Made by a program: the position numbers and the translations under genes. Positions 1 to 18,680 of a stretch of 64,000 bases of DNA are shown in pieces. Location: NCBI GenBank assembly GCA_041652815.1, contig JBAZGN010000001.1, positions 182,315-246,314 of the forward strand, given 5' to 3'. Position 1 is the stretch's first letter. The number at the start of each line of letters is the position of its first letter. The DNA is from Candidatus Omnitrophota bacterium (lineage in GTDB: Bacteria > Omnitrophota > Gorgyraeia > Duberdicusellales > 4484-171). The notes under the pieces were generated by a model, which was not told where the DNA came from, ran no database searches, and saw nothing but the letters and a program-made list of their open reading frames with translations.

Positions 1-3000
1 TAACCTTTGAGGCTATGGTTAAAGAGCCGGTGGTATCAATATTGATATTTGCTGTACCGCTATAACCCCAGCTATCCACGCCTTCTAATCCGAAATTCTT
101 TACTGAATAACCCCACGTACCCGGGTCGATAAGAGTTAAATTGCCCTGATTTTTAATATTAATGTTGTAACTGTTAACTGAAGTGTCGCTCACTCTTGCG
201 GCAAGTTGGGAAACCTGGGTTTCCAAAGCATCTTCGCCCCATAAAGGATGCGAGCCAATTCCTAATGCTGAATCAAGAATTAATTTATTCGCCACTACAT
301 TCATTGCCGCGGCGTTATTATCAACGATTCTCCTATATTTACTGATAAGGGTGGCTGTGCCGGTTCCGGCATTAACATATCCAAGGCGTATATCGCCCCA
401 GGCAGTTAAATTAACGTCTCCGTTATTGGTTAAAATCTGCGCGCTACCGGATTGAACTATATTGCCATAAGCGTCTAAATCATTATAACCGCCTAATAAG
501 GTTATGGTTTTGCCGGCGAGAAGAGTTTGAATAGTTGTGCCGGTATTCTGAACGATGTCGTCTCCGGCGCTAAGAGTAATGTTTCCGTTGTTTGAGGTAA
601 TATTCGCATTGATGGTTAACCTATCCGCCAATGCAGGATAATCAGCAGTTTCTCCGGCGCTAAGGTTAATATCGCCGCTGGCAATCACATTAGCATTCAC
701 AGTTAATGGTGAAGCCGTTGAAATATTTACTGCGCCGTTTAAAGCATGAATCGCATAACCCCACGCAGCAGGATCAACAAGACTCAAATCGCCCGTATTA
801 TTAATTTCTATATTTCCGTTTGTGGTTTGTGCGGATAAGTTGGAAACTTCTGTTTCAAGGGGATTACCTGTACCGATGCCATCTTGAGCGGAAAGAATAA
901 GACTGGTAGCAGTGATATTAAGGTTGACAACGGGTGGTCCTGTTGTATCATTGCCGTCAAAAATTGCTCCTGTAGCCCTTAAATCCACCAAAGCGCTTGT
1001 TCCTGTCGCGCTGATATTACCAATATATAAATCTCCGCCTGTAACGTCTACAAAAATATCTCCGTTATTGTTTGAACCGTTAAAATTTAAAGACGAATTA
1101 CCGTTCTGGTTGAAATTAATATTTCCGTTTGTGGTGTTTGCGGTTGTATTTACCGGAAGGCCATTGCTTGTCGTGTTGTCTACATTAATATCTCCGCCGG
1201 CATTATTTAAAGTAATATCGTTTGCGATGGTTTCAATTGCATTGCCTGCGCCGATACCGCTAAGTGCGTTAAGAATAACATTAGCAGCGCTAATATTGTT
1301 TAAACCCCCGTTTAAATCGATAATTGCACCAGCACTAGTAATTAATTTAACTGTGCCGATAGAATCAACCAGGCCAACAGAAATATCTCCTGTAGCGTCT
1401 ACCTCTATATTGCCCGCAGAATTAGTGATTAAGCCCGGGCTGTAAACTGTATTGGCAACAATCTTAAGGTCGCCTGAAGAAGTAGTAATTGTACCGTAAT
1501 TGTTCAAGTTATTGAGTAGATCAAGTACGTTGCCGTTTAAATCCAGGGTCTTGCCTGTTATCACATCTACATTATAAAAAGTTGTGGTGCCATAAAGATT
1601 AGAAGTACCTGTGCCGCCAAAAACAATTGTGCTATGTTTGGGGTCAAACGTGCCGTTGTTGGTCCAGTTACCAGTCACGGTTATAATTTCCCCATCTAAC
1701 GTTGTCAGGGAACTGCCTGGAGTTATAACAATATTATTAAAAGTAAGGTCATCGCCGGAAGCGCCGCTTGCTATGCTGTTGCCGTTAAAAGTAACCGTAC
1801 CGCCGTTGGCATTGAAGGTGGTGCCGTAGCCGTTTAATTGGAAGATGCCGGCGATATTCATATTGCCGGCAGGGGCATTAAGAGCATGGCCAATGGCAAT
1901 GTATAAATTATTAAATGATGGCTCGATAGAACCACTAATAGTGCTAGTGGTGCCGTCACCGTAGAATCTAACGCTTGCATTATTATGGTTAAAAGTACCG
2001 TTTTGAATCCAGTTTCCGGATACCTTTATTTCATTGACAGGGGCAGTAAGGCTGGTGCCCGCACCGATAGTCAAGTCACCGGTGATATCTAAAGTAATTG
2101 TGCTGCCGCCTACACTTAAAGCGCTAGTGCCGGCAGTAATAAGATTATGGAAAGCTTGCGTATAAGGCGTGCCGTTAATCTGCTGACTGCCCGCACCGTT
2201 AAAAATAACCGTACCGCCGTTGGGATTAAAGGTGCCGCCGTTATTGGTCCAGTTACCTGAAATATTAGTATTTGCACCTGCGCTAAAGGTAGCTCCGCTC
2301 TCAATAATTAAACTCTTAGCAGTTACATCATCTCCCGGAGTAAAAGTTTTCCCTGCCCAAATCAACAGGTCGCCGTTTACATTCAAGGGACTGGAAACGC
2401 TATAAATTATATCCGGGTCGGTTAATCCGCCTTTAGCAGCGGCTAAGATTGCGTTGGTAATCGCTCCGGCAGCTTCATGCCTTAAAATTAAAGTTCCGCC
2501 ATAAATATTTAAACCAATTATATCCGCTGCTACGCCGGTAAGAGTTACGGTAGTTCCATGCACAACATTGCCGTCTATATAAACTAAAATAACAGAGCCA
2601 TCAGCATAATTTACATTGGCAAAGCTATAATTACCGTTTGTGGTAATAACAGGACTGCCGATAACGTTTCCGTTTATAACAAGAATTATATTTGCGCCAT
2701 CCGTAATCCGTGTTATGCCCTGGTCAAGATAAACAATACCGGAAATAGCGAAACCAGTTGGCACCGGAATCTGCCAAATAAAGCAAGGATAGCCATTATT
2801 TATGCTGGCATTAATCCCCCAAGTGTTAGTGAAATCCCATCCGGCGTTAGTAAACGTTGATTGGGTTTTCATGTCTGCGGTAGATTTTCCAGTCATGCCT
2901 GATGGATCGCTAGAACCATTACCAGCGCCTCTGGATATACCAGAAACGTCTTTATCCCAGAAATTTGCTGTATAATGAGCGCCGATATCGTTATATCCAA

Positions 3001-5833
3001 CTAAACCGCCAAAATATATTGCGGGGTGACTGGAACTGCCTGATGTACTGGCCGTAGCGCTTATATTACCAGCAAAATAAGATTTTTCGATAGTACCATA
3101 ATTTTGCCCTACTAAACCACCAATATACACGGTGGCATCGCTATCACTACCAGTTGTTGATGCTGTGCCAGACACATTTCCTCTAGCGTAACAGTTAGAA
3201 ATAGTACTGGAAGAGCTGACCTGGCCAACTAAACCACCAACGATAACGGTAACGGGATTATCATGCCCTGTCCTTGCCCACGTGCCAGTCACATTGGTAG
3301 TGGAATAGGATTTAGATATACTGCTTGAATGGCTGATATAACCAGCTAGACTTCCAACATAATTTCTACCTGTTATACTTCCGCCCTCTAAACCGACATT
3401 TTGGATTTGAGCACCATAGAGATAGCCAAAAAGACCAACATAGTCTGAAGAGCGGTTTATATAAAGACCTGTAATTTTGTGATAATCGCCGTCGAGACTG
3501 CCGGTAAAATTATTGGAACTGCTGCCTACCGACTCAAAGCCTTTGTTGCTATCCCAAGTAGAGGTTCCGGAAGCATCTATGTCTTTCGCGAGCTTAAAGT
3601 ATGACGAAAGGTGGCATTTCATTGCCTGTAGACCATAGATATCATATATAAGGTATGGGGTAGCTGAACTGCCAGTTCCGGTAAAGCGGTTAAAAGTGCC
3701 ACCCGGCAGAGTAAAACTGTTGGATACGCTAAAAACAATGGTTGGGTCAGACTGGAAAGTCCCGCTGTTTAAGATAAAATTAGCTACGCTAATCGCGTTA
3801 TTCTGTACAAATGTCGGATTTGAACCGGAATCAGACTCTCTTAAAGTAAGCGTTGCCACTCCGCTTATGGTGCGCAGCATGCAATTTTTTGGGCTCCCCG
3901 AAGAAAGCGCAGAGCTTCTTATGGTAAGATTATTGTTATTCCCAATAATAGAAGAACCAGGCCCCATGCTAAAAACACCCCAGCCGCCGGTATTATGATC
4001 TGCCCAGAAAGTAAGATCGCCGGTCATATTTATAACGGCATTGTCCGCGATATTAATGTCATCGTCATCATACCAGGGGCCGCTATAATTTCCGCTACCC
4101 CAGGTTATTGCATTGTCAAGATTATCTAGATATGCAGATTCGACTTCAGCTGTTCCGCTAACATAAAATGACGCGCCGTGCTCTAAAAGGGTCTTTGCCC
4201 TTAAAATGCCTGTGGCTTCAATGGGCCCCTGGGCTTCAAGAGTAACGGTTCCACTTGATAGAATTGTTCCGGTTATATTTATGCCTTGATTACTGGTTAA
4301 AGAAATGTTTTGAGCGGAAATTTCACCTGCGATTATGATGGTATAAGTGCTGGTAAGAGCAGGGTCGTACGGTAGGGTGGTCGCGAACACAACATTTGCA
4401 GCGTTGTAAGACGGTGGTGCGCGGCCGTTTAAGACGCCGTAAAAACCTAATTGATTAAAAGCATTTATTTCAAATGAACCAGCATCACCTTGTATACTAC
4501 CGGCTGATACATCAATTACCGCTCCGCTTAATACGTCTGTACCGCCGTTTGTTGACTTAACCAATATCTGGCCGCCGTTACCCACGGTAAACGGGCAAGC
4601 TGCACTGGTTACACTATTTGAACCTAAAACAGTTGAGCTCTGGGAAATAAGTTCGACTGACCCGGCTGTTCCACCTTCATATGCGTTTGCTGAAATTAAG
4701 CCATTCTGGAAGAGCATCGCGCTCAATAACGCAACTTGCCCTCCGTCAACTGCTGTGCTCGTTCCATCCGCGGTAATTGAACCGCTATTTATTAAAACTC
4801 CATTATCGGCAGTAACAGCGATAGTTGCCTCGCCTGAAACAGGGTTGCTTACACTAATAGTTCCTTCATTTATAATATTGCTTGTTGCATTAACAATCTT
4901 TATTTCTTTGCTTGCCTCTATAATGCCGGTTGCGGTATTTATAATCGGTGCGCCGCTGGCGGCAAGCTCGATAACTCCGTCGTGCTCGTTTAATGCTTTT
5001 GCCTGGATTACGCCTGAATTATTTATCGCGTAGTCAAAAACCTCATTTAAGACTTTAGCTGTTAGAATAATTTTTCCGCCGTTTGCAGAAATGGTGCCGC
5101 TATTTTTAATTGCGCTATCCATTCTCTGGCCGTCGGGTCCGATGATTTCTGACTGAACGGCTTCATCTATGACTACGGAAATTAAACTATTGTTGTCTAA
5201 GCCAACGGTAATTTTTTCACCGGCAGCCAAAGCAATCGTTCCTAAATTAGCTAAGGCATAAATTTCGCCCTGATTTTCTACTGCCTGGGAAAGAAGACAA
5301 ATGTATCCTCCGGCTTTGTTGGTTGAAAGCATTCCGTTGTTGATGACGTAAGCGTTCTTGCCGGCGACTTTAAAAAATTCATAGTTGCCTTTCATAAAAT
5401 TTTCGTTGGTGATATCAAGAGTTGAGGCAACTAACCCCGCGGCATTAACGTGGCTTCCTGAACCAAATAAAATTCCGTTTGGATTTACTAAAAAGATTTG
5501 CCCGTTTGGTGCGTTGATTGTCCCGAAGATACTGGAAGGGTCGGCTCCGGTTACGCGGTTTAAAGAAATAAAAGACGAATCGCGGTTATAGTTAACTGTC
5601 TTACCTGCGGCAACGTTATAACTGTTCCAATCAATAATGGATTTGTCGCTGCCAATATTTATGTCTACTGTGTTGGGGTTGGTATTGATTATGGCAGCAG
5701 AACCGTCTACGACTGTGCCGCCTTCGGGAAGACTTTGCGAAAAGCAATTCAAAGAGAGTGAAAAAAGAAAAATAGCCAGAAAGGCTATTTTGTAAATACT
5801 GATTTTTTTGCTAAATTTTTTAAACGACTCCAT
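1..5833 (-). CDS. Two-partner-secretion exoprotein TpsA (filamentous haemagglutinin / large adhesin family), 3' end beyond the window
   Basis: The minus-strand frame is open from ATG at 5833-5831 to the window edge; it is missing from the ORF track because its stop lies outside. My own translation of the first ~550 codons gives a signal peptide (MESFKKFSKKISIYKIAFLAIFLFSLSLNCFSQ) followed by a TPS secretion domain (NYNRDSSFISLNRVTGADPSSIFGTINAPNGQIFLVNPNGILFGSGSHVNAAGLVASTLDI), then long G/S/T/N-rich beta-helical repeats. Only one >=60 aa ORF is listed on the minus strand across 1-5833, consistent with a single uninterrupted frame. Confidence 0.75.
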   Translation of the reverse strand, partial: MESFKKFSKKISIYKIAFLAIFLFSLSLNCFSQSLPEGGTVVDGSAAIINTNPNTVDINIGSDKSIIDWNSYNVAAGKTVNYNRDSSFISLNRVTGADPSSIFGTINAPNGQIFLVNPNGILFGSGSHVNAAGLVASTLDITNENFMKGNYEFFKVAGKNAYVINNGMLSTNKAGGYICLLSQAVENQGEIYALANLGTIALAAGEKITVGLDNNSLISVVIDEAVQSEIIGPDGQRMDSAIKNSGTISANGGKIILTAKVLNEVFDYAINNSGVIQAKALNEHDGVIELAASGAPIINTATGIIEASKEIKIVNATSNIINEGTISVSNPVSGEATIAVTADNGVLINSGSITADGTSTAVDGGQVALLSAMLFQNGLISANAYEGGTAGSVELISQSSTVLGSNSVTSAACPFTVGNGGQILVKSTNGGTDVLSGAVIDVSAGSIQGDAGSFEINAFNQLGFYGVLNGRAPPSYNAANVVFATTLPYDPALTSTYTIIIAGEISAQNISLTSNQGINITGTILSSGTVTLEAQGPIEATGILRAKTLLEHGASFYVSGTAEVESAYLDNLDNAITWGSGNYSGPWYDDDDINIADNAVINMTGDLTFWADHNTGGWGVFSMGPGSSIIGNNNNLTIRSSALSSGSPKNCMLRTISGVATLTLRESDSGSNPTFVQNNAISVANFILNSGTFQSDPTIVFSVSNSFTLPGGTFNRFTGTGSSATPYLIYDIYGLQAMKCHLSSYFKLAKDIDASGTSTWDSNKGFESVGSSSNNFTGSLDGDYHKITGLYINRSSDYVGLFGYLYGAQIQNVGLEGGSITGRNYVGSLAGYISHSSSISKSYSTTNVTGTWARTGHDNPVTVIVGGLVGQVSSSSTISNCYARGNVSGTASTTGSDSDATVYIGGLVGQNYGTIEKSYFAGNISATASTSGSSSHPAIYFGGLVGYNDIGAHYTANFWDKDVSGISRGAGNGSSDPSGMTGKSTADMKTQSTFTNAGWDFTNTWGINASINNGYPCFIWQIPVPTGFAISGIVYLDQGITRITDGANIILVINGNVIGSPVITTNGNYSFANVNYADGSVILVYIDGNVVHGTTVTLTGVAADIIGLNIYGGTLILRHEAAGAITNAILAAAKGGLTDPDIIYSVSSPLNVNGDLLIWAGKTFTPGDDVTAKSLIIESGATFSAGANTNISGNWTNNGGTFNPNGGTVIFNGAGSQQINGTPYTQAFHNLITAGTSALSVGGSTITLDITGDLTIGAGTSLTAPVNEIKVSGNWIQNGTFNHNNASVRFYGDGTTSTISGSIEPSFNNLYIAIGHALNAPAGNMNIAGIFQLNGYGTTFNANGGTVTFNGNSIASGASGDDLTFNNIVITPGSSLTTLDGEIITVTGNWTNNGTFDPKHSTIVFGGTGTSNLYGTTTFYNVDVITGKTLDLNGNVLDLLNNLNNYGTITTSSGDLKIVANTVYSPGLITNSAGNIEVDATGDISVGLVDSIGTVKLITSAGAIIDLNGGLNNISAANVILNALSGIGAGNAIETIANDITLNNAGGDINVDNTTSNGLPVNTTANTTNGNINFNQNGNSSLNFNGSNNNGDIFVDVTGGDLYIGNISATGTSALVDLRATGAIFDGNDTTGPPVVNLNITATSLILSAQDGIGTGNPLETEVSNLSAQTTNGNIEINNTGDLSLVDPAAWGYAIHALNGAVNISTASPLTVNANVIASGDINLSAGETADYPALADRLTINANITSNNGNITLSAGDDIVQNTGTTIQTLLAGKTITLLGGYNDLDAYGNIVQSGSAQILTNNGDVNLTAWGDIRLGYVNAGTGTATLISKYRRIVDNNAAAMNVVANKLILDSALGIGSHPLWGEDALETQVSQLAARVSDTSVNSYNINIKNQGNLTLIDPGTWGYSVKNFGLEGVDSWGYSGTANINIDTTGSLTIASKV

Positions 5834-6025
5834 TCTACCCCGTGGATTTCGTGGATTTACTGATATTGTAACCGTTTTCAAATGTTCTTAAGATATAGCA
5901 TTTTAATCAAAGAATGTCAAGTCGAAAATTTAAGATTTTTGTAACTTACTAAGGTGCAGTAACTTATGAAGTAGGAATTTATGTGCGTTTAATTCAAAGG
6001 CTCTTTACCCCTTGCGCCCAGATAT

Positions 6026-6066
6026 CGTGTGAATTTTCTCGGCCTGCGGCCAGGAAAATTCACACG
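6026..6066 (-). promoter_or_regulatory. Perfect 13-bp stem / 15-nt loop hairpin in the tpsB-tpsA intergenic region
   Basis: cgtgtgaattttc-[tcggcctgcggccag]-gaaaattcacacg; the loop itself contains the palindrome ggcctgcggcc. No U-tract follows on either strand. Confidence 0.5.
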
Positions 6067-6085
6067 AAGCGCTGCGGGGTTAATT

Positions 6086-6128
6086 CACACTATTATTTTT
6101 TCGGTGTGCACGCCGAAAAAATAATGTG
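6086..6128 (-). promoter_or_regulatory. Second imperfect hairpin immediately 3' of the tpsB stop
   Basis: cacactattattttttcgg-tgtgcac-gccgaaaaaataatgtg. The arms are complementary apart from a 2-nt bulge; the element sits 5 nt downstream of the tpsB stop codon. Confidence 0.4.
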
Positions 6129-6132
6129 CTCA

Positions 6133-7842
6133 TTAAAACCGCCAGCTGAACTCAACCCAAGGATGCGCACGGTTGCCATCCGAAGGAAGCTTGCCGAGCG
6201 GATAACCCATTTCAAATTTCAAAGATAAATCTTTTACGTTAAATCTTACGCCGTATCCCCAACCGCGAAGAGTGTCGCTCTTTTCTTCTCCGGCCTGAGG
6301 GTTGTTAAGGCGGCTGTTCGCCCAGTCATAAAAACAGACCAGCCTTACGGCATCATAAAGCCGGCTTCCGGTTGTAGGCACCATTATGCCTTTAGGCAAA
6401 CCATACACGGGAAACGACCACTCCGCAGAAGAATATATTCCCTTATCTCCCGCAAATTCACCCGGGCCGTAACCACGCACGCTTTGCGCGCCGCCGATTT
6501 GAAACTGCTCTGCCGCGGCTAAATTATAATTGGAAAGCTGCGCGGAATTTTTTAATAAAAGGGATGAAGAAAAAGGCATTGGCTGCAACCTGTAGAAGTT
6601 AAAAACTCCTTTAACGAACTGGCCGCCGGCACCAACGCGCGATGCCTTGGAGTCTTTCGCGGTTAAGCCGCCCCACATACGCGGTATGCCTACGTCTATT
6701 TCAGGAGTAATAATCGTTCTGCCAAACTTATCCGTAATATCAATGTCCAGGCCATTTTTGATAACCCGCATTTCGTCACGGGAAGATTCTGCGCCGGAAA
6801 GATAGTTTTTAATATCTTTATAATCAAAGCCGAAATTATATCGTAAATCAAGTATCCTGTTTTCAAATACGGCCCGGTTTACGAATATACCGGCGATATT
6901 GGCCTTGCCTACGGCACTTAAAGCGCGAAATTCCTTTCCCAGCACCAAACGGCTATAAGAATAATAACCGCCGATTTCTGTTTTTTCGTTTACCGGATAG
7001 ATATATCTTACGTTTTTTAAGCTATAAAGGCTTTTTTGCGACATTTGATATTTAAGGTACAACTTGTCATCAAATCCCAATAAATTATTATTTTCATAAA
7101 CAAATGCCCATCGGTTTTTTTCCATATAGCGGGAACCGAAATTATCATAGTCAAAACCTATATGTATGGGGAGCCTATCCTTTACCTCTATTACTATGTC
7201 GGTTGTGCCGGGCTCAACACCGGGGACTAAAATGGCTTTCGCCATTCTGTCGGGGTTTTCATTTATATAGGTAAGAGAATTTTGGAGGATATCGTAATCG
7301 AAGTAATCTTTCGGTTTAAGTTTAATTTTTTTTTCCAACAAAGATGTGCGGAAGTAGCGGTTTCCTTTAATATCGATTTTACCCACTTTGCCTTCAATAA
7401 TTTTTATTGTCAGAATACCGTCTTTAATGGTCTGCGGCGGAAGATAGGCGCGGGAAGTGGTATAACCTTTCTTTCTATAGCTTTCGGTTATTTTATCGGC
7501 AATCTTCTGCATTTCAGAAAGAGCCAGGTCTTTGCCTTCATATCCGGAAACTATACCTTTTAACTCCTTCTCTGAAAGCAAGGTAGCGCCTTCAACGACT
7601 ATTTTCTTTATCTGGACTTTTTTGGTATCTGCAGGCAGAGGCGCTTCCTTAACGGGTTCTTCTTTAATTTCCGGCTTTTTCTTTTTCGTTTGAATTTGCT
7701 GCTCGATTGCCTTTTGCTCTTCAAGGGCTCTGTCACGCTGTTCAGTAGCTCCTATTGTCTGCGACGGCGGCACTGTTTGGGCAAATGCGCCAAAAGATAA
7801 GATAATTATAGCAGTAAAAATTGAAGCGATTTTTAAGTTCAT
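6133..7842 (-). CDS. TpsB outer-membrane transporter of two-partner secretion (ShlB/FhaC/HecB family: POTRA + beta-barrel)
   Basis: 569 aa with a signal peptide (MNLKIASIFTAIIILSFGAFAQ), a K/E-rich linker and POTRA-like region, and a C-terminal barrel ending in an aromatic (WRF). It lies immediately upstream of the TpsA gene on the same strand. Confidence 0.75.
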   Translation of the reverse strand: MNLKIASIFTAIIILSFGAFAQTVPPSQTIGATEQRDRALEEQKAIEQQIQTKKKKPEIKEEPVKEAPLPADTKKVQIKKIVVEGATLLSEKELKGIVSGYEGKDLALSEMQKIADKITESYRKKGYTTSRAYLPPQTIKDGILTIKIIEGKVGKIDIKGNRYFRTSLLEKKIKLKPKDYFDYDILQNSLTYINENPDRMAKAILVPGVEPGTTDIVIEVKDRLPIHIGFDYDNFGSRYMEKNRWAFVYENNNLLGFDDKLYLKYQMSQKSLYSLKNVRYIYPVNEKTEIGGYYSYSRLVLGKEFRALSAVGKANIAGIFVNRAVFENRILDLRYNFGFDYKDIKNYLSGAESSRDEMRVIKNGLDIDITDKFGRTIITPEIDVGIPRMWGGLTAKDSKASRVGAGGQFVKGVFNFYRLQPMPFSSSLLLKNSAQLSNYNLAAAEQFQIGGAQSVRGYGPGEFAGDKGIYSSAEWSFPVYGLPKGIMVPTTGSRLYDAVRLVCFYDWANSRLNNPQAGEEKSDTLRGWGYGVRFNVKDLSLKFEMGYPLGKLPSDGNRAHPWVEFSWRF

Positions 7843-8023
7843 TTTCCCTCTCCTTTCTTATGCTGAGCTTTATTTTATGATTGGGCTTATTCTATAGTCA
7901 GGCAAAGACAATGTCAATATAATTTTTCCCTGCTCCTGAAAACTATTCCGTACACCGCAAAAGCGCAAAATGGCCGCAAGAACGCAAAACGCATGCTAAA
8001 AATTACCTGCTACAAGAAAAATA

Positions 8024-9184
8024 TTGACTATTGCATCGCTCTGCTTTATTGTAAATACAATGGAAGAAAAATTTGCCATAGCGTCCAGCGAAAAGAGAGG
8101 CGAAGAAGCTGCCAAAGAGCTTTCTTTAAAAATAAAGTCCGTTTTTCCTAAGGCCGTCAAGGACATATTTTTATTTTTTACGCCTCAATATAACCCGCAC
8201 GAAGCCTTAAAAACTATAAATTTTACTTTAAAGCCCCGGAAGATAATTGGCCTGCAAAGCCCGTTTCTTAATTTTGAAGACCGGATACTGGAAGAAGGCA
8301 TGGTTGCTTTTGCCATAAATAAAGAGAATACAGAGTTTACGGAAGTTTTTATAAAAGAAGATTCGACGCAAAAAATAGAATCAGAGCTTCGGATGTTTTT
8401 GAAAAAATATTCCCATGAAAAAGAAGTTATTTTTTCTTTCTTATCGCATAATTTTAATTATCGTAATTACCTGCGCGGGCTGGAGCTTGCAATAGGAAAA
8501 TCTTTTAACGTCTTTGGGGGAGGCTACATTAGAAAATATGCCACGAAGAATTATCAGATAGTAAATAATACGGTAACCGAAGGCCTGGTTAACATAATCG
8601 GCGGCGGCATACAAGAAACATCGTTAAGCATCGCCGGGTTTATCCCTTTGGGCAAGCCTTTTACAATCACAAAAGTTATGGCGCAAGAAAGCATAATAAT
8701 GGAAATAAACGGCAGGCCGGCCATAAATATATACAGGGATTATCTGGAAGATAAATTCAATACTTTCATAAAAAATTATCTTTTCTCGCTATATCCGCTT
8801 GGCGTCTATTATAATGACGATATACATTTAATAAACGTTATCGAATGTTTAAAAGACGGCTCTCTCGCCTGCATTGGGAATCTTAAGGAAGGCGTAAAGG
8901 GGCATATAATGTTTTTCCATCCACAAGCCCTGCTTGATGAGCTTAAGAAAAAACTTGGATTCATAAAGAGCCATGGAGAAGGTTTGGTATTTATGGTAAA
9001 CTCTATGTTGAGAAAGCGGGTATTGCGGGAATACGCATACGAAGAGAGCCGCGTTATCAAGCAGCTGCTCGGGGATAAATTCAAAATAATAGGCATATAT
9101 GCTGATTACTCTTTTTTCTCTGAAGCAGAGAGAAGAGAAATAAACCTTGAAGCCGGAAACATATTAATGACGTTATGGAAATGA
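8024..9184 (+). CDS. Putative FIST-type sensory domain protein (FIST_N + FIST_C); true start probably ATG at 8060
   Basis: About 375 aa, cytoplasmic, with no catalytic motifs. Conserved-looking blocks (FFTPQYNPHEAL...IIGLQSP, NVFGGGYI, GIYADYSF) resemble FIST sensors. It overlaps the downstream histidine kinase gene by 10 nt, an arrangement common for FIST-HK pairs. The 8024 start is a TTG; the MEEKFAIASS methionine at 8060 is the more plausible start. Confidence 0.45.
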   Translation: MTIASLCFIVNTMEEKFAIASSEKRGEEAAKELSLKIKSVFPKAVKDIFLFFTPQYNPHEALKTINFTLKPRKIIGLQSPFLNFEDRILEEGMVAFAINKENTEFTEVFIKEDSTQKIESELRMFLKKYSHEKEVIFSFLSHNFNYRNYLRGLELAIGKSFNVFGGGYIRKYATKNYQIVNNTVTEGLVNIIGGGIQETSLSIAGFIPLGKPFTITKVMAQESIIMEINGRPAINIYRDYLEDKFNTFIKNYLFSLYPLGVYYNDDIHLINVIECLKDGSLACIGNLKEGVKGHIMFFHPQALLDELKKKLGFIKSHGEGLVFMVNSMLRKRVLREYAYEESRVIKQLLGDKFKIIGIYADYSFFSEAERREINLEAGNILMTLWK

Positions 9185-10653
9185 ACACAACATTATCCTC
9201 TATGGGGCCCATTATAGGTTCGGCGATTTTTCTATGTTTCGTGATAGTTTTTCTTGTTATTTATATTATAAATAAGCTGCAATTTATAAATATCCTCAAA
9301 AGAAATATCGAACACCTTAATAAAACAATCCGGGAGCTTGATTATCAGGCAAAACTAATAATCAAGGGCGATATGGAGCTGAAGCTCTACCAGGAAGAAG
9401 TGGAAGATAAACTCAACAAGCTTACTCTTCTTAAAAATCTCATAATATCTTCACTGCACATTCTGGATAAAGAAAACCTTTTTTCGCAAGTAGACGATAA
9501 AACGATAAATGACCTGGGTTTTAAAAAGGGCCTGATACTCACAATGGAAGGCGAGGTAAAATTAAGTGTCGGCTTTGAACCCAAGGAAATAGATGCACTA
9601 AAAGATTTCGTAAAATATAAAAAGAACTTCATCCAGGCCATACCATTAATTTCATCCGATACCGAAGCCGGTGCGGAATTGATAACTACCCTTCAAACAA
9701 AAGATTTTCTAATCGCTCCGATAAAAGCGCGGGAGAAAATATATGCCGTGTTTGTTTTGGCCAACCTGGTTATGCCAACGGATGTCAGGCGCGCGGAAAA
9801 AGAAATTTTTTCAATTATCTGTATGTATCTTGGCCAGTGCCTCGACAACATTCAGCTTTTTGAAGAAATCTATAATGCAAAAGATGAGCTTGAGAAGAAA
9901 GTAAAAGAAAGAACCAATGAATTAGTTAAGAGCTTACGCGAGATAGAAGCAATTAGCCGGGCAAAATCGGATTTTATCTCCGGCGTATCGCATGAATTGC
10001 GCACCCCTCTTACTTCAGTAAAAGGTTTCTCTTCGCTCTTGGTTGCTGAAAAATTCGGAAAGCTCCCTGAAGAAGCCAAGAAGCGCCTTGAGACAATAGA
10101 TGAAAATGTTGATAAGCTTGTAAATATGGTCAATACTCTTTTGGACATCGCGCGTATCGAATCGGGGAAAACAGAAGTAAAAATAGCTCCTGCCGATATC
10201 GCAAAATCAATCAGGGATGCGGGCGAATTCCTCTCCCCTCAAATGCAGGCAAAAGCAATAAAATTAGTTTTGGATACACCGGAGACACTTTTGGTCTACA
10301 TGGATAAAAACCTTATTGACCAGGTATTTATAAACCTGCTTGGAAATGCCATTAAATTCACGCCCAACGGCGGGCAGATAAAAATAAGTGTTAAGGCAAC
10401 CGGCAATCAAGCTGTTGTTGCCGTAGCAGATACAGGCTATGGAATAGAGAAAGAAAATTTGGAAAAGATTTTTCAGGAATTCTTTAGGGCAGATAATGCA
10501 GTAAATGCTATGGCAAAAGGAACGGGGCTTGGCCTATCTCTTGTAAAAAGAATTATCGAAATACACAAAGAAAAAATATGGGTCGAATCAGAAATTGGAA
10601 AAGGCAGCACCTTTTATTTCACGCTTAAATTGGCGAAGGAAAAGAACATTTAA
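9175..10653 (+). CDS. Sensor histidine kinase (N-terminal TM helix, coiled coil, GAF-like region, HisKA, HATPase_c)
   Basis: H-box SHELRTPLTSVKGF, N-box LLGNAIKFTP, G-boxes DTGYGI and GTGLGLSLVKRIIE, and an N-terminal hydrophobic helix. Confidence 0.85.
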   Translation: MEMNTTLSSMGPIIGSAIFLCFVIVFLVIYIINKLQFINILKRNIEHLNKTIRELDYQAKLIIKGDMELKLYQEEVEDKLNKLTLLKNLIISSLHILDKENLFSQVDDKTINDLGFKKGLILTMEGEVKLSVGFEPKEIDALKDFVKYKKNFIQAIPLISSDTEAGAELITTLQTKDFLIAPIKAREKIYAVFVLANLVMPTDVRRAEKEIFSIICMYLGQCLDNIQLFEEIYNAKDELEKKVKERTNELVKSLREIEAISRAKSDFISGVSHELRTPLTSVKGFSSLLVAEKFGKLPEEAKKRLETIDENVDKLVNMVNTLLDIARIESGKTEVKIAPADIAKSIRDAGEFLSPQMQAKAIKLVLDTPETLLVYMDKNLIDQVFINLLGNAIKFTPNGGQIKISVKATGNQAVVAVADTGYGIEKENLEKIFQEFFRADNAVNAMAKGTGLGLSLVKRIIEIHKEKIWVESEIGKGSTFYFTLKLAKEKNI

Positions 10654-10724
10654 AATGGAAAAGGTTAAGGTTGAGGTTAAGCTATAATATACTCTTGACC
10701 TCAACCTTAACCTGAGTTTATATT

Positions 10725-11663
10725 ATGGTTAAATTAAAAATAATGGTCGTTGACGACGACCCTGATATTTTGGAACTTCTCAAGGCAACCCTGGAAGAAG
10801 AATACGAAGTTATCAGTGCCGCCCTTGGCAACGAAGCTATAGAAAAATTAAAAAGCCAGGTGCCTGACCTATTGGTTTTAGATTATATGCTTCCTGACAT
10901 TCAGGGGCCGCAAATATGTAATATTTTAAGAAAAGACCCGCTGCTTGTGCATTTGCCCGTGCTGATGCTGACCGGCAAAGGAGAAATCGAAGATAAGGTA
11001 AAAGGGCTTGAGTCAGGTGTTGATGATTATATGGTAAAGCCTTTTTCACCGCAGGAGCTTACTGCGAGAGTGCGAATGCTTATACGGCGGTCGAATATCA
11101 ATTTAGACGCAAACCCTTTAACGCGGCTTCCCGGAAACGTTTCAATAAACCGCGAACTGGATGAAAAGATAAAAAGCAAAGAAAAGTTTGCCGCGCTTTA
11201 TATCGATTTGGATAACTTCAAAGCGGTAAATGACTACTACGGCTTTGAAAGAGGCGACGAGGTAATAAAAGAAACCGCCCGCATTTTAATCGATGCCATT
11301 TCAAAAGAAGGCACCACAAAAGATTTCATCGGCCATATCGGCGGAGATGATTTCTTTATCATAACCTCTCCGGAAAAGGGCGAAGAAATAGCAAAAAAAA
11401 TAATAAGTGATTTCGATAAAGTATCTCCCAAATTTTTTGATGAAAAAGACAGGATAAAAGGCTTTATCGAAACAAAGGGGCGTGACAACGAAATACATAA
11501 ATTCGGATTTATTACTATCTCTGTGGGAATAATAACCAACTTATACAGAGAGTTCACGCATACCGCACAAATAAGCTCGCTCGGAGCAGAAGTTAAGGGG
11601 TTTGCCAAAAAATTCGCTCAAAGTAAATATATTTTCGACAAAAGAACCGAGCAGAAATACTGA
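10725..11663 (+). CDS. Response regulator: REC domain fused to a GGDEF-family domain with non-canonical GGDDF signature
   Basis: REC motifs (MVVDDDPDILELL, phospho-acceptor in LVLDYMLPD, MLTGKG, KPF). GGDEF-domain motifs are NPLTRLPGN, DLDNFKAVNDYYG, RGDEVIK, then GGDDF where GG(D/E)EF is expected. Confidence 0.8.
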   Translation: MVKLKIMVVDDDPDILELLKATLEEEYEVISAALGNEAIEKLKSQVPDLLVLDYMLPDIQGPQICNILRKDPLLVHLPVLMLTGKGEIEDKVKGLESGVDDYMVKPFSPQELTARVRMLIRRSNINLDANPLTRLPGNVSINRELDEKIKSKEKFAALYIDLDNFKAVNDYYGFERGDEVIKETARILIDAISKEGTTKDFIGHIGGDDFFIITSPEKGEEIAKKIISDFDKVSPKFFDEKDRIKGFIETKGRDNEIHKFGFITISVGIITNLYREFTHTAQISSLGAEVKGFAKKFAQSKYIFDKRTEQKY

Positions 11664-11754
11664 ATACGAATTACCACGAATTTGAAACGAATTGCCACTA
11701 ATTAAAACCTATTTAAATAGTTCCAAAAAATAAATATAGTTGTCAGAGTAACGG

Positions 11755-12525
11755 TTGTATGATATATATAATCTTCCTAAAAATAAACATAGTATGCCAA
11801 AATTAGAAGTTAACGATAATTTTTTCAAAAATTGGTCACCAGATATGGCTTATGTTTTAGGTTTGATTACCGCTGATGGATGCCTCATAAAACATAAAAA
11901 TGGCCATAGGAGTTTGGATATTACTTTAAAAGATAAAAGATTACTGGAAGATATTAAAAAACTATTAAATTCCGAGCACAAAATAGGTAAAAAAACCAGA
12001 GGATACCGTCTACAAATTAAAAACAAAACTTTGTATAATGATCTTTATAGCTTAGGGCTAACTCCAAGAAAATCTAAAACTATTAGGTTCCCTGCCGTAC
12101 CTCCGAAATATCTTTCTGATTTTGTACGAGGTTATTTTGACGGTGATGGCAGCGTTTGCGTATGGAAAGAAAAACGCTGGAAAAATAGTTTACAAATCAG
12201 AACAACTTTTGTTTGCGGGAGCTTACCTTTTTTAAAATCATTAAAAACCAATCTCTCTGAATATGGCGAACTAGATAAAGGTAAAATATGGGGAGGAAAC
12301 AAAAACAACAGAGCGGCTTATGAGCTTCATTACGGGATAAATGATAGCTTAAGATTGTTTAATTTTATATATAAACCTCAAAGCTTTCCCTATTTAAACC
12401 GAAAAAAACAAAAGTTTGAGTTCTTTATAAAATCAAAAAATAATTTTCCATCTGCGAGAGTGGCGGTCAACAACCTTTGCCAAAGGCAAAGCTTCTTTAA
12501 TGTTGTTGCCCGCATAAGCTATTAA
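11755..12525 (+). CDS. LAGLIDADG-family homing endonuclease, free-standing (two-motif, single-chain type)
   Basis: Two LAGLIDADG motifs at the expected spacing (LGLITADGCL and VRGYFDGDGSV). The protein is basic with a K/R-rich C-terminal half. The true start may be the internal Met of MPKLEVNDN. Confidence 0.8.
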   Translation: MYDIYNLPKNKHSMPKLEVNDNFFKNWSPDMAYVLGLITADGCLIKHKNGHRSLDITLKDKRLLEDIKKLLNSEHKIGKKTRGYRLQIKNKTLYNDLYSLGLTPRKSKTIRFPAVPPKYLSDFVRGYFDGDGSVCVWKEKRWKNSLQIRTTFVCGSLPFLKSLKTNLSEYGELDKGKIWGGNKNNRAAYELHYGINDSLRLFNFIYKPQSFPYLNRKKQKFEFFIKSKNNFPSARVAVNNLCQRQSFFNVVARISY

Positions 12526-12581
12526 ACTAAATAAATTTCTTGTAGAAGCAAAAAGTTTTTGACCAAACTGAAAACTATGTA

Positions 12582-12665
12582 GCGAGAGTGGCGGAATTGG
12601 CAGACGCATTAGCTTGAGGGGCTAACGGTAGCAATACTGTAGGGGTTCAACTCCCCTCTCTCGCA
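12582..12665 (+). tRNA. tRNA-Leu (anticodon GAG), type II with long variable arm
   Basis: Folded by hand. Acceptor stem gcgagag/ctctcgc with discriminator A. Anticodon stem ttagc/gctaa with loop ttGAGgg (U33, G37). Variable-arm hairpin cggta-gcaa-tactg. T stem agggg/cccct with loop ttcaact. CCA is not encoded. Confidence 0.85.
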
Positions 12666-12668
12666 TGT

Positions 12669-12745
12669 TTTATTTATTAACGTTTAGCGGGTAACGTATA
12701 GTATTGAATTACTAAACGCTCTACGCTAAACGTTAATAAAATGGT
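12669..12745. terminator. Dyad-symmetric element between convergent tRNA-Leu and rex (putative bidirectional terminator)
   Basis: ttaacgtttagcg ... cgctaaacgttaa, a perfect 13-bp inverted repeat, flanked by tgttttattta on the tRNA side and taaaatgg on the rex side. Confidence 0.45.
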
Positions 12746-12764
12746 TAAATAGTTTTCCTCGGTA

Positions 12765-13406
12765 CTACTGCAAGTTTACTCTTTCCAAAAGCTTCAATCT
12801 ATAGGTAAGATAAGTTAGCTGGCAAGAAAAATCCACATCCTTAAGGATAATGTCTTGCGGCAAAGCAAGTTTTACCGGTGCAAAATTTAAAATGGCGCGT
12901 ATTCCGCATCGATATAAATTATCTGAAATTTCTTTTGCATTTTCTTTTGGTACCGTTATTATCGCAATTCGGATATTTTCTTTCTTTATTATATTCTGAA
13001 GCTTCTCAAGGCCGTAAATTTTTATTCCGTTATAAGTTTTGTTTTGTTTATTTTTATCAACATCAAAGGCAGCCTTTATGCATATACCCTGGTCGCGAAA
13101 ACCTTTATAAAAGGAAAGGGCTCTGCCTAAATTGCCGAAACCCACAACGCAAACATTCCACTGCTGATTTAAACCGAGTATCTCTTTTATCCGGTCAATA
13201 AGCTCAAGGCAGGAATATCCCACGCCCTTTTTGCCGAAATGCCCGAAATAGGAAAGGTCTTTTCTTAATTGATGATGGCTTATTTTAAGAAAATCGGCGA
13301 GCTGGCGGCTTGATACTACTTTTTTCTTTTCTTCAAGAAAATAAATAAGGGCGCGCAGGTAATAAGATAGGCGTATGATGGTTTCTTCGGGAATTTTTTT
13401 GTCCAT
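12765..13406 (-). CDS. rex: Redox-sensing transcriptional repressor Rex (winged helix + NAD(H)-binding Rossmann domain)
   Basis: N-terminal IPEETIIRLSYYLRAL...SSRQLADFLKISHHQLRKDLSYFG. GxGxxG Rossmann motif VVGFGNLGRAL. The most plausible start is MDKKIPEE at 13406; the ORF-track extension to 13457 translates the upstream repeat element. Confidence 0.8.
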   Translation of the reverse strand: MDKKIPEETIIRLSYYLRALIYFLEEKKKVVSSRQLADFLKISHHQLRKDLSYFGHFGKKGVGYSCLELIDRIKEILGLNQQWNVCVVGFGNLGRALSFYKGFRDQGICIKAAFDVDKNKQNKTYNGIKIYGLEKLQNIIKKENIRIAIITVPKENAKEISDNLYRCGIRAILNFAPVKLALPQDIILKDVDFSCQLTYLTYRLKLLERVNLQ

Positions 13407-18329: not shown

Positions 18330-18680
18330 CTGTAATATATTATCACAGAGGGTTAAAAAGGCAAAGTGGGGTGTTGGAAATTGGTTGGTGAAGTTAATTA
18401 CCCCTCGCGCCTGAATATCGTATAAATTTTCCACGCTTGTTTCACAAGCAGGAAAATTTATACGAAGCGCTTCGGGGGTGTTTTTTTGCTGCCCGAAGGA
18501 CAGCAAAAAAACACCCTGCCATCAGTCCGTCTCAGGCTTGCTGCATACAGTCCGTTTCTCATACAAGTGGGTGCTTCATCCTATTCGCCTCAGCGAAAGG
18601 AAATTCAGCTCCCGTGTATTAGGTGTTGGCTGTAGCACTTTAACCTGTTGACGCAACAGGCAGGGTTAATTTTCCCTTTC
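18330..18680. ncRNA. GC-rich, highly structured non-coding island (candidate small RNA or leader; identity unknown)
   Basis: 490 bp without a credible ORF in an otherwise densely coding, AT-rich context. Nested perfect hairpins: aaccctctgtaatatattatcacagagggtt; cgtataaattttcc-[acgcttgtttcacaagcag]-ggaaaatttatacg; mutually exclusive cttcggg/cccgaag versus gggtgtttttttgctg/cagcaaaaaaacaccc. On the minus strand, the segment from ccctgcctg to caggg (~150 nt) closes on itself. Confidence 0.35.

Follow-up and report, generated by a model that had tools for sequence, protein, structure and literature searches.

A stretch of 64,000 nucleotides from a Candidatus Omnitrophota bacterium (assembly GCA_041652815.1, contig JBAZGN010000001.1, positions 182,315 to 246,314), referred to below as the window, contains three consecutive genes on its plus strand. 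They encode a FIST-family protein (FIST_N and FIST_C, 374 amino acids, 8060-9184), a histidine kinase (492 amino acids, 9175-10653) and a response regulator composed of a receiver (REC) domain and a GGDEF domain of the GGDDF type (312 amino acids, 10725-11663). A layout of this kind, with a FIST sensor gene followed by genes for a kinase and a REC-GGDDF regulator, had been proposed in an earlier note made from the sequence alone, and the coordinates, strand, order and Pfam domains of the three genes all agree with it. The overlap of 10 nt between the first two genes (9175-9184) was found as described; the spacer in the gap between the kinase and regulator open reading frames (ORFs; 10654-10724, plus strand) does carry a hairpin but measures 71 nt instead of 70. 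Since the domain scores far exceed the curated Pfam cutoffs (HisKA 76 against 26.9 bits, HATPase_c 104 against 26.4, REC 97.5 against 30.2 and GGDEF 63.6 against 23.8), these are real genes rather than chance ORFs.

The FIST assignment, previously made by eye, was confirmed by both Pfam models: FIST_N was recognized at residues 36-219 (about 8165-8716, 50.1 bits against a cutoff of 23.2) and FIST_C at residues 221-348 (about 8720-9103, 59.8 bits against 28.5). The ORF of 8024-9184 named in the earlier note exists and opens with TTG. Of 116 strong homologues, however, almost all have a length of 374-375 amino acids and begin with MEEKF, which places the true start with near certainty at the ATG of position 8060. 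Wherever the source supplies an organism name for one of these homologues, it is Omnitrophota or Omnitrophica. The protein has no hydrophobic segment and is therefore cytoplasmic. An AlphaFold2 (AF2) model of the 8060-9184 product, built on 29 homologues, reached a predicted local distance difference test (pLDDT) score of 90.2 and a predicted TM-score (pTM) of 0.88, and its best solved matches in a fold search of the PDB were four chains of FBXO22 (E from 2e-9 to 1e-6, TM-score about 0.5, top 0.51), a human F-box protein that contains FIST domains. No solved FIST homologue was retrieved from the PDB by sequence or profile searches, so that matches came from the fold search alone. The sole NCBIfam match of the protein was the NosP equivalog model NF041558, with 28.4 bits against a cutoff of 450 bits and restricted to residues 200-345. 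By sequence it is a member of the FIST family but not a demonstrable NosP. The start codon, ATG in the window, is GTG in three relatives (L003, L004 and L085).

The histidine kinase has one hydrophobic segment (residues 5-42) predicted to form an N-terminal transmembrane (TM) helix (about 9208-9273). A coiled coil precedes a GAF-like domain recognized by a weak Pfam match (about 9457-9879, E = 0.006), and these are followed by HisKA (9961-10167) with the phospho-acceptor His273 encoded at 9991-9993, and by HATPase_c (10303-10635). The H, N, G1, F and G2 boxes are complete (SHELRTP at 272, NLLGNAIKF, DTGYGI, FQEFFR and GTGLGL), and on these motifs the protein is assigned to the class I (HisKA) histidine kinases. 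The TM helix leaves no more than about ten residues outside. As the kinase has practically no periplasmic part, it must take its input from the membrane or the cytoplasm, which fits a soluble partner.

In the response regulator the REC domain (10740-11075), with the phospho-acceptor Asp53 at 10881-10883, is joined by a short linker to the GGDDF-type domain (11097-11660), the motif itself occupying residues 206-210 (codons 11340-11354). The GGDEF-family output suggested earlier was thus upheld by Pfam, and from its residues and model the domain looks catalytically competent. Residues D10, D11, D53, T83 and K105 of REC are invariant in 33 Omnitrophota orthologues, and so are GGDDF, D161, N169, D178, K166, K291 and K295 of the output domain. 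In a phmmer alignment to PleD the window residues D161, N169 and D178 stand opposite D327, N335 and D344, and GGDDF stands opposite GGEEF; D161, which belongs to the 'idlD' of the conserved DxDxFK motif, is aligned with the Asp that binds metal in PleD. At the I-site, five residues before the motif, the regulator reads TTKD where PleD reads RAID, so that RxxD is absent. The RxxD I-site is common in diguanylate cyclases and not obligatory. No EAL or HD-GYP partner domain was found in the regulator, and the position of the Ser that defines Hypr enzymes (PleD D344, GacA S348) is occupied by Asp178 in the window protein and by Asp in each of the 33 orthologues. Among the three proteins of the triad, conservation is highest in the regulator (63-94% identity) and lowest in the FIST protein (44-90%). 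The AF2 model of the regulator (pLDDT 85) shows the expected GGDEF order of strands and helices through residue 304; the top PDB matches in a fold search were WspR, PleD and DgcR, and the GGDEF half matched the GGDEF domain of DosC with a target TM-score (TMt) of 0.74 over about 184 columns, so that a complete GGDEF fold is predicted. Judged from the conserved residues and the model, the regulator is most likely an active cyclase, probably one forming cyclic di-GMP (c-di-GMP).

The FIST, kinase and REC-GGDDF genes were found in the same order and on the same strand in all 12 loci long enough to show the triad, namely the window, L001, L002, L003, L005, L085, L086, L089, L091, L092, L093 and L094. 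The identity of the FIST protein to that of the window is 87% in L003, 68% in L005, 55% in L091, 52% in L001, 50% in L092, 46% in L093, 44% in L002 and 39% in L094; L085 and L086 were reached via a regulator match at 94% identity. The lowest values across the 12 loci are those of L089 (FIST 28%, kinase 38%, regulator 51%), in which GGDDF is kept. Moreover, in 25 entries of the independent FIST and regulator match tables the longest contig is of equal size, with nine contigs of at most 10.3 kb. In most loci the genes of the triad overlap or almost touch, as would fit co-translation, and the overlap of 10 nt between the FIST and kinase genes recurs in L086 and L002. As every locus of sufficient length keeps the order of the triad, the kinase is no orphan paired elsewhere, an outcome that the earlier note had named as one that would count against it. 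The triad is a conserved, vertically inherited core module of the uncultured phylum Omnitrophota, usually located near rpoD/dnaG, and the downstream genes Rex, AIRS, YjeF_N, PAC2 and MgsA are broadly conserved as well. A gene for a protein of 254 amino acids with the metallo-beta-lactamase fold lies directly 3' of the regulator gene on the same strand in the deep-branching complete genomes L001 (8287-9051) and L002 (10636-11400). It was considered as a further part of the module and rejected, as it is absent from the window, L003, L005 and L085. Its product scores 41 bits with Lactamase_B_2 and a sub-threshold 24 bits against 50 with Apyc1, and from these matches a nucleotide phosphodiesterase is conceivable.

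The best available evidence on where the FIST protein acts comes from a natural fusion. On a metagenome contig of 5.8 kb (L087, 2652-5275) a FIST/FIST_C gene stands immediately 5' of a gene for a protein of 445 amino acids, P0246, in which a TM/coiled-coil/GAF N-terminus is fused straight to a GGDDF domain, a one-component version of the system. The N-terminus of P0246 is 28% identical to residues 16-226 of the window kinase (E = 2e-19) and is GAF-positive by Pfam. Since a FIST gene and the shared input module recur either with a phosphorelay or with a single polypeptide, this module is the likely docking or signal-input part for FIST, and on this sequence comparison the FIST protein likely exerts its effect on the kinase through that N-terminal module. 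GGDDF is combined with the same input module in both the kinase system and the fusion, so it appears to be the constant, intended output.

An exhaustive phmmer search with residues 125-312 of the regulator (a query of 188 residues) against 1.84 billion cluster representatives retrieved 765 GGDDF-clade clusters (clustered at 50% identity) at E <= 1e-30, with matches spanning query residues 1-185. Among the best 150 clade representatives GGDD[FY] is present in 148, and most of them share the LPGN start of the domain. GGDDF is thus a clade signature under selection and not a product of decay. At the base-specifying positions, 125 of the same 150 carry the Asn...Asp pair, and the second position is Ser in 10 and Asn in 9. 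The majority of clade members have the REC-GGDDF architecture; multi-REC, REC-GGDDF-EAL, hybrid kinase-REC-GGDDF, TM-HAMP-GGDDF and TM-coiled coil-GAF-GGDDF proteins also occur. The members with the Ser variant share about 45% identity with the window domain and have the TM-HAMP-GGDDF architecture; one of them comes from Geoalkalibacter. They fit what has been published on GSU1937, the first GGDDF enzyme for which activity was demonstrated: it produced cyclic GMP-AMP (cGAMP) and c-di-GMP in vivo and was inactivated by mutation to GADDF (PMC8835794). Full-length REC-GGDDF relatives with 36-47% identity, all of them reading GHxGGDDF, were found in metagenome-assembled genomes labelled Clostridia, Vulcanimicrobiota, Elusimicrobia and Anaeromyxobacteraceae. 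A genome scan based on the regulator alignment picked generic REC peptides, so that most of its 80 loci contain unrelated regulators and L005-L010 alone were informative.

We propose, with a probability of about 0.7, that the triad is an auxiliary-sensor two-component operon with a cyclic dinucleotide, most likely c-di-GMP, as its output, and not a dedicated regulator of the adhesin encoded next to it by genes for two-partner secretion (TPS). The soluble FIST protein would bind a small cytoplasmic ligand, contact the N-terminal TM/coiled-coil/GAF module of the kinase and change the rate of autophosphorylation at His273. The kinase would then transfer the phosphoryl group to Asp53 of the regulator, and the phosphorylated REC domain would dimerise and pair two GGDDF domains for the conversion of two GTP into c-di-GMP. 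With RxxD missing from the I-site, the regulator itself would not be subject to product feedback. The domains, the intact motifs, the order of the genes and the natural fusion are observed, as are the folds of the FIST protein and the regulator at the level of models; the contact of FIST with the kinase and its sign, the pairing in phosphotransfer, the activity of the cyclase and its product, the ligand and the downstream targets are what we infer from them. In proposing a phosphorelay in which a FIST sensor sets the level of a cyclic dinucleotide, the earlier note had described an operon type that is already established for the NosP systems.

Upstream of the triad, across a divergent intergenic region of 7843-8059 with promoter-like consensus matches only, lie two genes on the minus strand. 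One encodes the outer-membrane transporter TpsB (569 amino acids, 6133-7842; POTRA_2 81 bits, ShlB 87 bits) and the other, a single open frame at 2-5833 that runs off the start of the window, a TpsA-type giant exoprotein of more than 1,940 amino acids with a TPS secretion domain at residues 33-294 (107 bits) and a GLUG motif. The POTRA_2 and ShlB domains of the former and the N-terminal TPS domain of the latter identify the pair by sequence as a two-partner secretion system. TpsB is the upstream neighbour of FIST only in the window, L003, L004, L085 and L086, in which the FIST proteins are at least 84% identical. Elsewhere the neighbours are NfeD/Band_7 (L001, L002, L092 and L094), CvpA-NIF3-DnaG-RpoD (L091 and L093), an exopolysaccharide (EPS) export locus encoding a Wzc-like protein, a Wza-like protein and a BBP2 porin (L005, 716-4168, minus strand) or a Tad pilus locus encoding RcpC, a secretin and a TadZ/ATPase fusion (L089, 1-3304, minus strand), the last two directly divergent from FIST; in L094 a Tad pilus locus (1-3576, minus strand) lies beyond NfeD/Band_7. 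Three types of surface-structure loci upstream of the triad in three lineages are suggestive of a surface-related role, the sample being too small to weigh. In the intergenic region of the window about 85 nt proximal to tpsB are conserved in L003, L004 and L085 and include a promoter-like TTGACA-17-TAGAAT on the minus strand (7917-7889, 11 of 12 consensus matches), whereas the FIST-proximal part is not conserved and the region varies in length from 217 to 443 nt among genomes with 87-90% identical FIST proteins. The candidate promoters on the plus strand (7895-7923 and 8024-8052) are consensus matches only. A run of CGCAAAA-like repeats (ccgcaaaagcgcaaaatggccgcaagaacgcaaaacgca) is located at 7955-8000 (plus strand), 5' of the FIST gene.

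Several findings weigh against the triad being an operon with an active c-di-GMP-forming output, and most of them concern the GGDDF domain. The Pfam GGDEF match covers only positions 5-116 of the 161 in the profile, and Pfam and the solved GGDEF sequences align just with the first 100-120 residues or so, so that the C-terminal half is known from the model alone. The linker between REC and GGDEF is about 13 residues shorter than that of PleD and has a pLDDT below 50, which makes the geometry of activation uncertain. The fourth residue of the motif is Asp and not the Glu described as the catalytic base acting across the dimer; the GGDDF protein PA3258 has been reported inactive, and wild-type GSU1937 as well as three of its four fusion constructs were without activity in E. 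coli (PMC8835794). On the input side, the FIST profile found no FIST gene near the REC-GGDDF regulators from other phyla (L006-L010), from which it follows that FIST is not an obligatory partner of the GGDDF output. The FIST protein itself falls far below the NosP equivalog cutoff, and none of the His, Cys and Met positions is fully or almost fully conserved in the alignment of 29 sequences of its family. Like many degenerate GGDEF domains, the GGDDF domain might be devoid of catalytic activity and serve as a receptor or in protein interactions, which would account for the departure of GGDDF from the active-site definition [G/A/S]G[D/E]E[F/Y] (PMC8835794) and for the inactivity of PA3258, the shorter Asp possibly disrupting the function of the base across the dimer. 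We nevertheless consider it unlikely, as the residues that bind substrate and metal are invariant, the regulator is better conserved than the other two proteins, TTKD stands in place of RxxD, the site commonly used by receptors, no EAL or HD-GYP domain accompanies the domain, and activity has been demonstrated for one GGDDF domain, that of GSU1937 (PMC8835794). Production of a different nucleotide signal (cGAMP, c-di-AMP or another), in the manner of the Hypr GGDEF enzymes, is suggested by the only characterised active GGDDF enzyme being the cGAMP synthase GSU1937 (PMC8835794), by the divergent and structurally unsolved C-terminal half of the clade and by Ser or Asn at the base-specifying position in 19 of the 150 representatives; with the guanine-specific Asn169 and Asp178 (PleD D344) kept in the window protein and the 33 orthologues, and the Hypr Ser absent from them, it has a very low probability. 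The divergent C-terminal half, the short linker and the replacement of the Glu base by Asp make it conceivable that GGDDF domains form a large, unsolved branch of the GGDEF superfamily with a different catalytic geometry or product, the triad being a phylum-wide master nucleotide switch and the ligand of FIST neither nitric oxide nor haem, but we hold this combination to be a long shot.

Two further explanations concern the ends of the pathway and not its chemistry. The FIST protein might be a genuine NosP, controlling the kinase as a haem protein responsive to nitric oxide or labile haem: it stands alone with the same pair of domains, the logic of its operon is that of NosP-NahK-NarR and NosP-NosK-NosR, and NosP is its only NCBIfam match. 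The haem of NosP is ligated by a His. The low score confined to residues 200-345, the lack of a conserved His, Cys or Met and the description of ligand binding by FIST proteins as poorly understood in a review (PMC8846402) speak against such an identity, which is improbable in our view; it would touch the ligand only and is compatible with the mechanism proposed for the auxiliary-sensor operon. The other explanation, that the module is a dedicated switch of the neighbouring TPS adhesin whose cyclic dinucleotide controls expression or secretion of TpsA, corresponds to the link with the adhesin made in the earlier note. It draws on the divergent arrangement with tpsB in the window and its four close relatives, on the EPS export and Tad pilus loci found upstream in other lineages and on PilZ genes noted beside giant genes in Omnitrophota (preprint 10.1101/2023.11.21.568195). 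However, only relatives whose FIST proteins are 84% identical or more show the adjacency, NfeD/Band_7 or CvpA-NIF3-DnaG-RpoD take its place in L001, L002, L091, L092 and L093, and conservation of the shared intergenic region is limited to the part containing the tpsB-proximal promoter. The TPS genes have a G+C content of 43% against 38-40% in the triad, which fits a later insertion, and no c-di-GMP riboswitch (Rfam c-di-GMP-I/II) was detected in the window at the gathering score, nor in 5700-12900 at E <= 1, where everything beyond the known RNAs was noise. A dedicated adhesin switch is accordingly doubtful: the TPS locus was inserted beside the triad in one shallow lineage, and the two became neighbours by a recent accident specific to that lineage. 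Control of adhesins, EPS and pili is a classic role of c-di-GMP, and the 'sessility switch' of the earlier note stands as a reasonable guess from this general role, for which the proximity of this particular adhesin provides no evidence.

The hairpin in the spacer between the kinase and regulator genes (10662-10713) has a stem of 20 bp, an inverted repeat of 20 nt with 95% complementarity, and a loop of 12 nt; its minimum free energy is -32.9 kcal/mol (z = -7.1), and none of 200 shuffled sequences folds as well. A conserved regulatory function of the hairpin is not borne out by the relatives, in which the two genes are separated by 2-3 nt (L003, L085 and L086) or overlap by 8 nt (L001, L002 and L091 on deeper branches), so that the spacer of the window is a recent insertion. 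The hairpin is outside the conserved design of the operon, although it may reduce or stabilise the transcript locally. An intrinsic terminator was rejected, the loop being 12 nt long and the stem being followed by GAGTTTATATT and not by a T-run; nor is it listed by the terminator scan. A known RNA was likewise rejected, as the Rfam matches were confined to miRNA noise below the threshold. A specific mobile palindromic element was discarded too, since the 20-mer arm consists of repeated (AGGTTR)n hexamers and has more than 120 exact matches in metagenomes, some of them in 24-nt tandem arrays; a complementary arm is found nearby in two of 139 matches, with unrelated loops and flanks, and within the window the arm occurs at this site only. 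The left arm (10655-10687, plus strand) can be read as a mini-ORF of ten codons from ATG to TAA, MEKVKVEVKL, 2 nt past the stop codon of the kinase, probably by coincidence. Unrelated palindrome-rich inserts are present at the same junction in three lineages: 71 nt in the window, 390 nt in L005 (7611-8000, a nested imperfect palindrome of about 290 nt) and 218 nt in L092 (9568-9784).

The regulator stop codon is followed by a run of ACGAATT-type repeats (11664-11705), similar to the run upstream of the FIST gene, and by a free-standing LAGLIDADG endonuclease gene (11755-12525, plus strand; LAGLIDADG_3, 45.5 bits; 32% G+C) situated between the regulator and tRNA-Leu genes. No homologue of this gene was found in the loci L001, L002, L003, L005, L085, L086 and L089, so it is probably an intergenic insertion specific to the window. 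The tRNA-Leu gene (anticodon GAG, 12582-12665, plus strand) was recognized by both Rfam and ARAGORN, and about 180 nt around it constitute the part of the intergenic region between the regulator and Rex genes that is conserved in L003 and L005. At the gathering score Rfam identified in the whole window one tRNA and one 6S RNA only, the latter (SsrS, 18509-18669, minus strand) with 47.4 bits against the gathering score of 46.4. The G+C content of the window falls steadily from 42-44% at 1-8000, the TPS genes being the most GC-rich, to 31-34% at 42-60 kb.

The closest known counterparts of the triad are the NosP-NahK-NarR system of Legionella pneumophila (lpg0279-0277) and the NosP-NosK-NosR system of Burkholderia pseudomallei (BPSS1647/1646/1648), in which a FIST protein binds the kinase and sets its rate of autophosphorylation and the kinase phosphorylates the regulator (PMC8846402; PMC12570481). 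As in both of these, the genes for a stand-alone FIST/FIST_C protein, a kinase and a response regulator linked to c-di-GMP form a single operon in the window. The window operon differs from them in its FIST protein, which scores 28 bits against the 450 of the NosP equivalog model, in its kinase, which is membrane-anchored with a coiled coil and a GAF-like domain whereas NosK is soluble without a recognised sensor domain and NahK is a hybrid kinase, in its output, pure REC-GGDDF instead of GGDEF-EAL or a degenerate HD-GYP, and in its host, an uncultured lineage of Omnitrophota. The H-NOX-HnoK-HnoB systems are alike in that a soluble sensor encoded beside the kinase controls a c-di-GMP-metabolising regulator (PMC8846402), but the H-NOX fold is unrelated to FIST and their output is a phosphodiesterase. 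The regulator shares the order of REC and GGDEF with WspR, PleD and DgcR, its top matches in the PDB by structure and by sequence, and by analogy the window cyclase would likewise be activated through phosphorylation-driven dimerisation. It differs from these three in having GGDDF and not GG[D/E]EF, no RxxD, a linker shorter than that of PleD, LPGN and not LxNR at the start of the domain, GF and not GH in NDxxGH, and a C-terminal half too divergent to be aligned with solved GGDEF sequences. GSU1937 of Geobacter sulfurreducens, a Hypr GGDDF cGAMP synthase, resembles it in the GGDDF variant and in the lack of an EAL or HD-GYP partner, and would belong to the same clade to judge from the Ser-variant TM-HAMP representatives and not from its own sequence; it has the Hypr Ser and a TM-HAMP input, whereas the window protein has Asp and a REC input.

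No new principle emerges from this locus, as its domains, the chemistry expected of them and the type of operon are all established. What is new relative to the NosP operons is the FIST subfamily, the input module of the kinase, the cyclase-only GGDDF output and the host phylum. In Omnitrophota, for which there is no genetic system, the triad represents a strictly conserved core unit that probably sets the level of a cyclic dinucleotide and thus offers a handle on signalling. The comparison with P0246 provides a testable statement on FIST auxiliary sensors, the working of which was termed poorly understood in a 2022 review (PMC8846402), namely that they act on the TM/coiled-coil/GAF module of the kinase. 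GGDDF is characteristic of a large clade rather than a degenerate motif of sporadic occurrence, which extends the single report of an active GGDDF enzyme (PMC8835794). Three points deserve to be retained: the strict conservation of the triad across the phylum, the fusion, which locates the input from FIST, and how large the uncharacterised GGDDF clade is.

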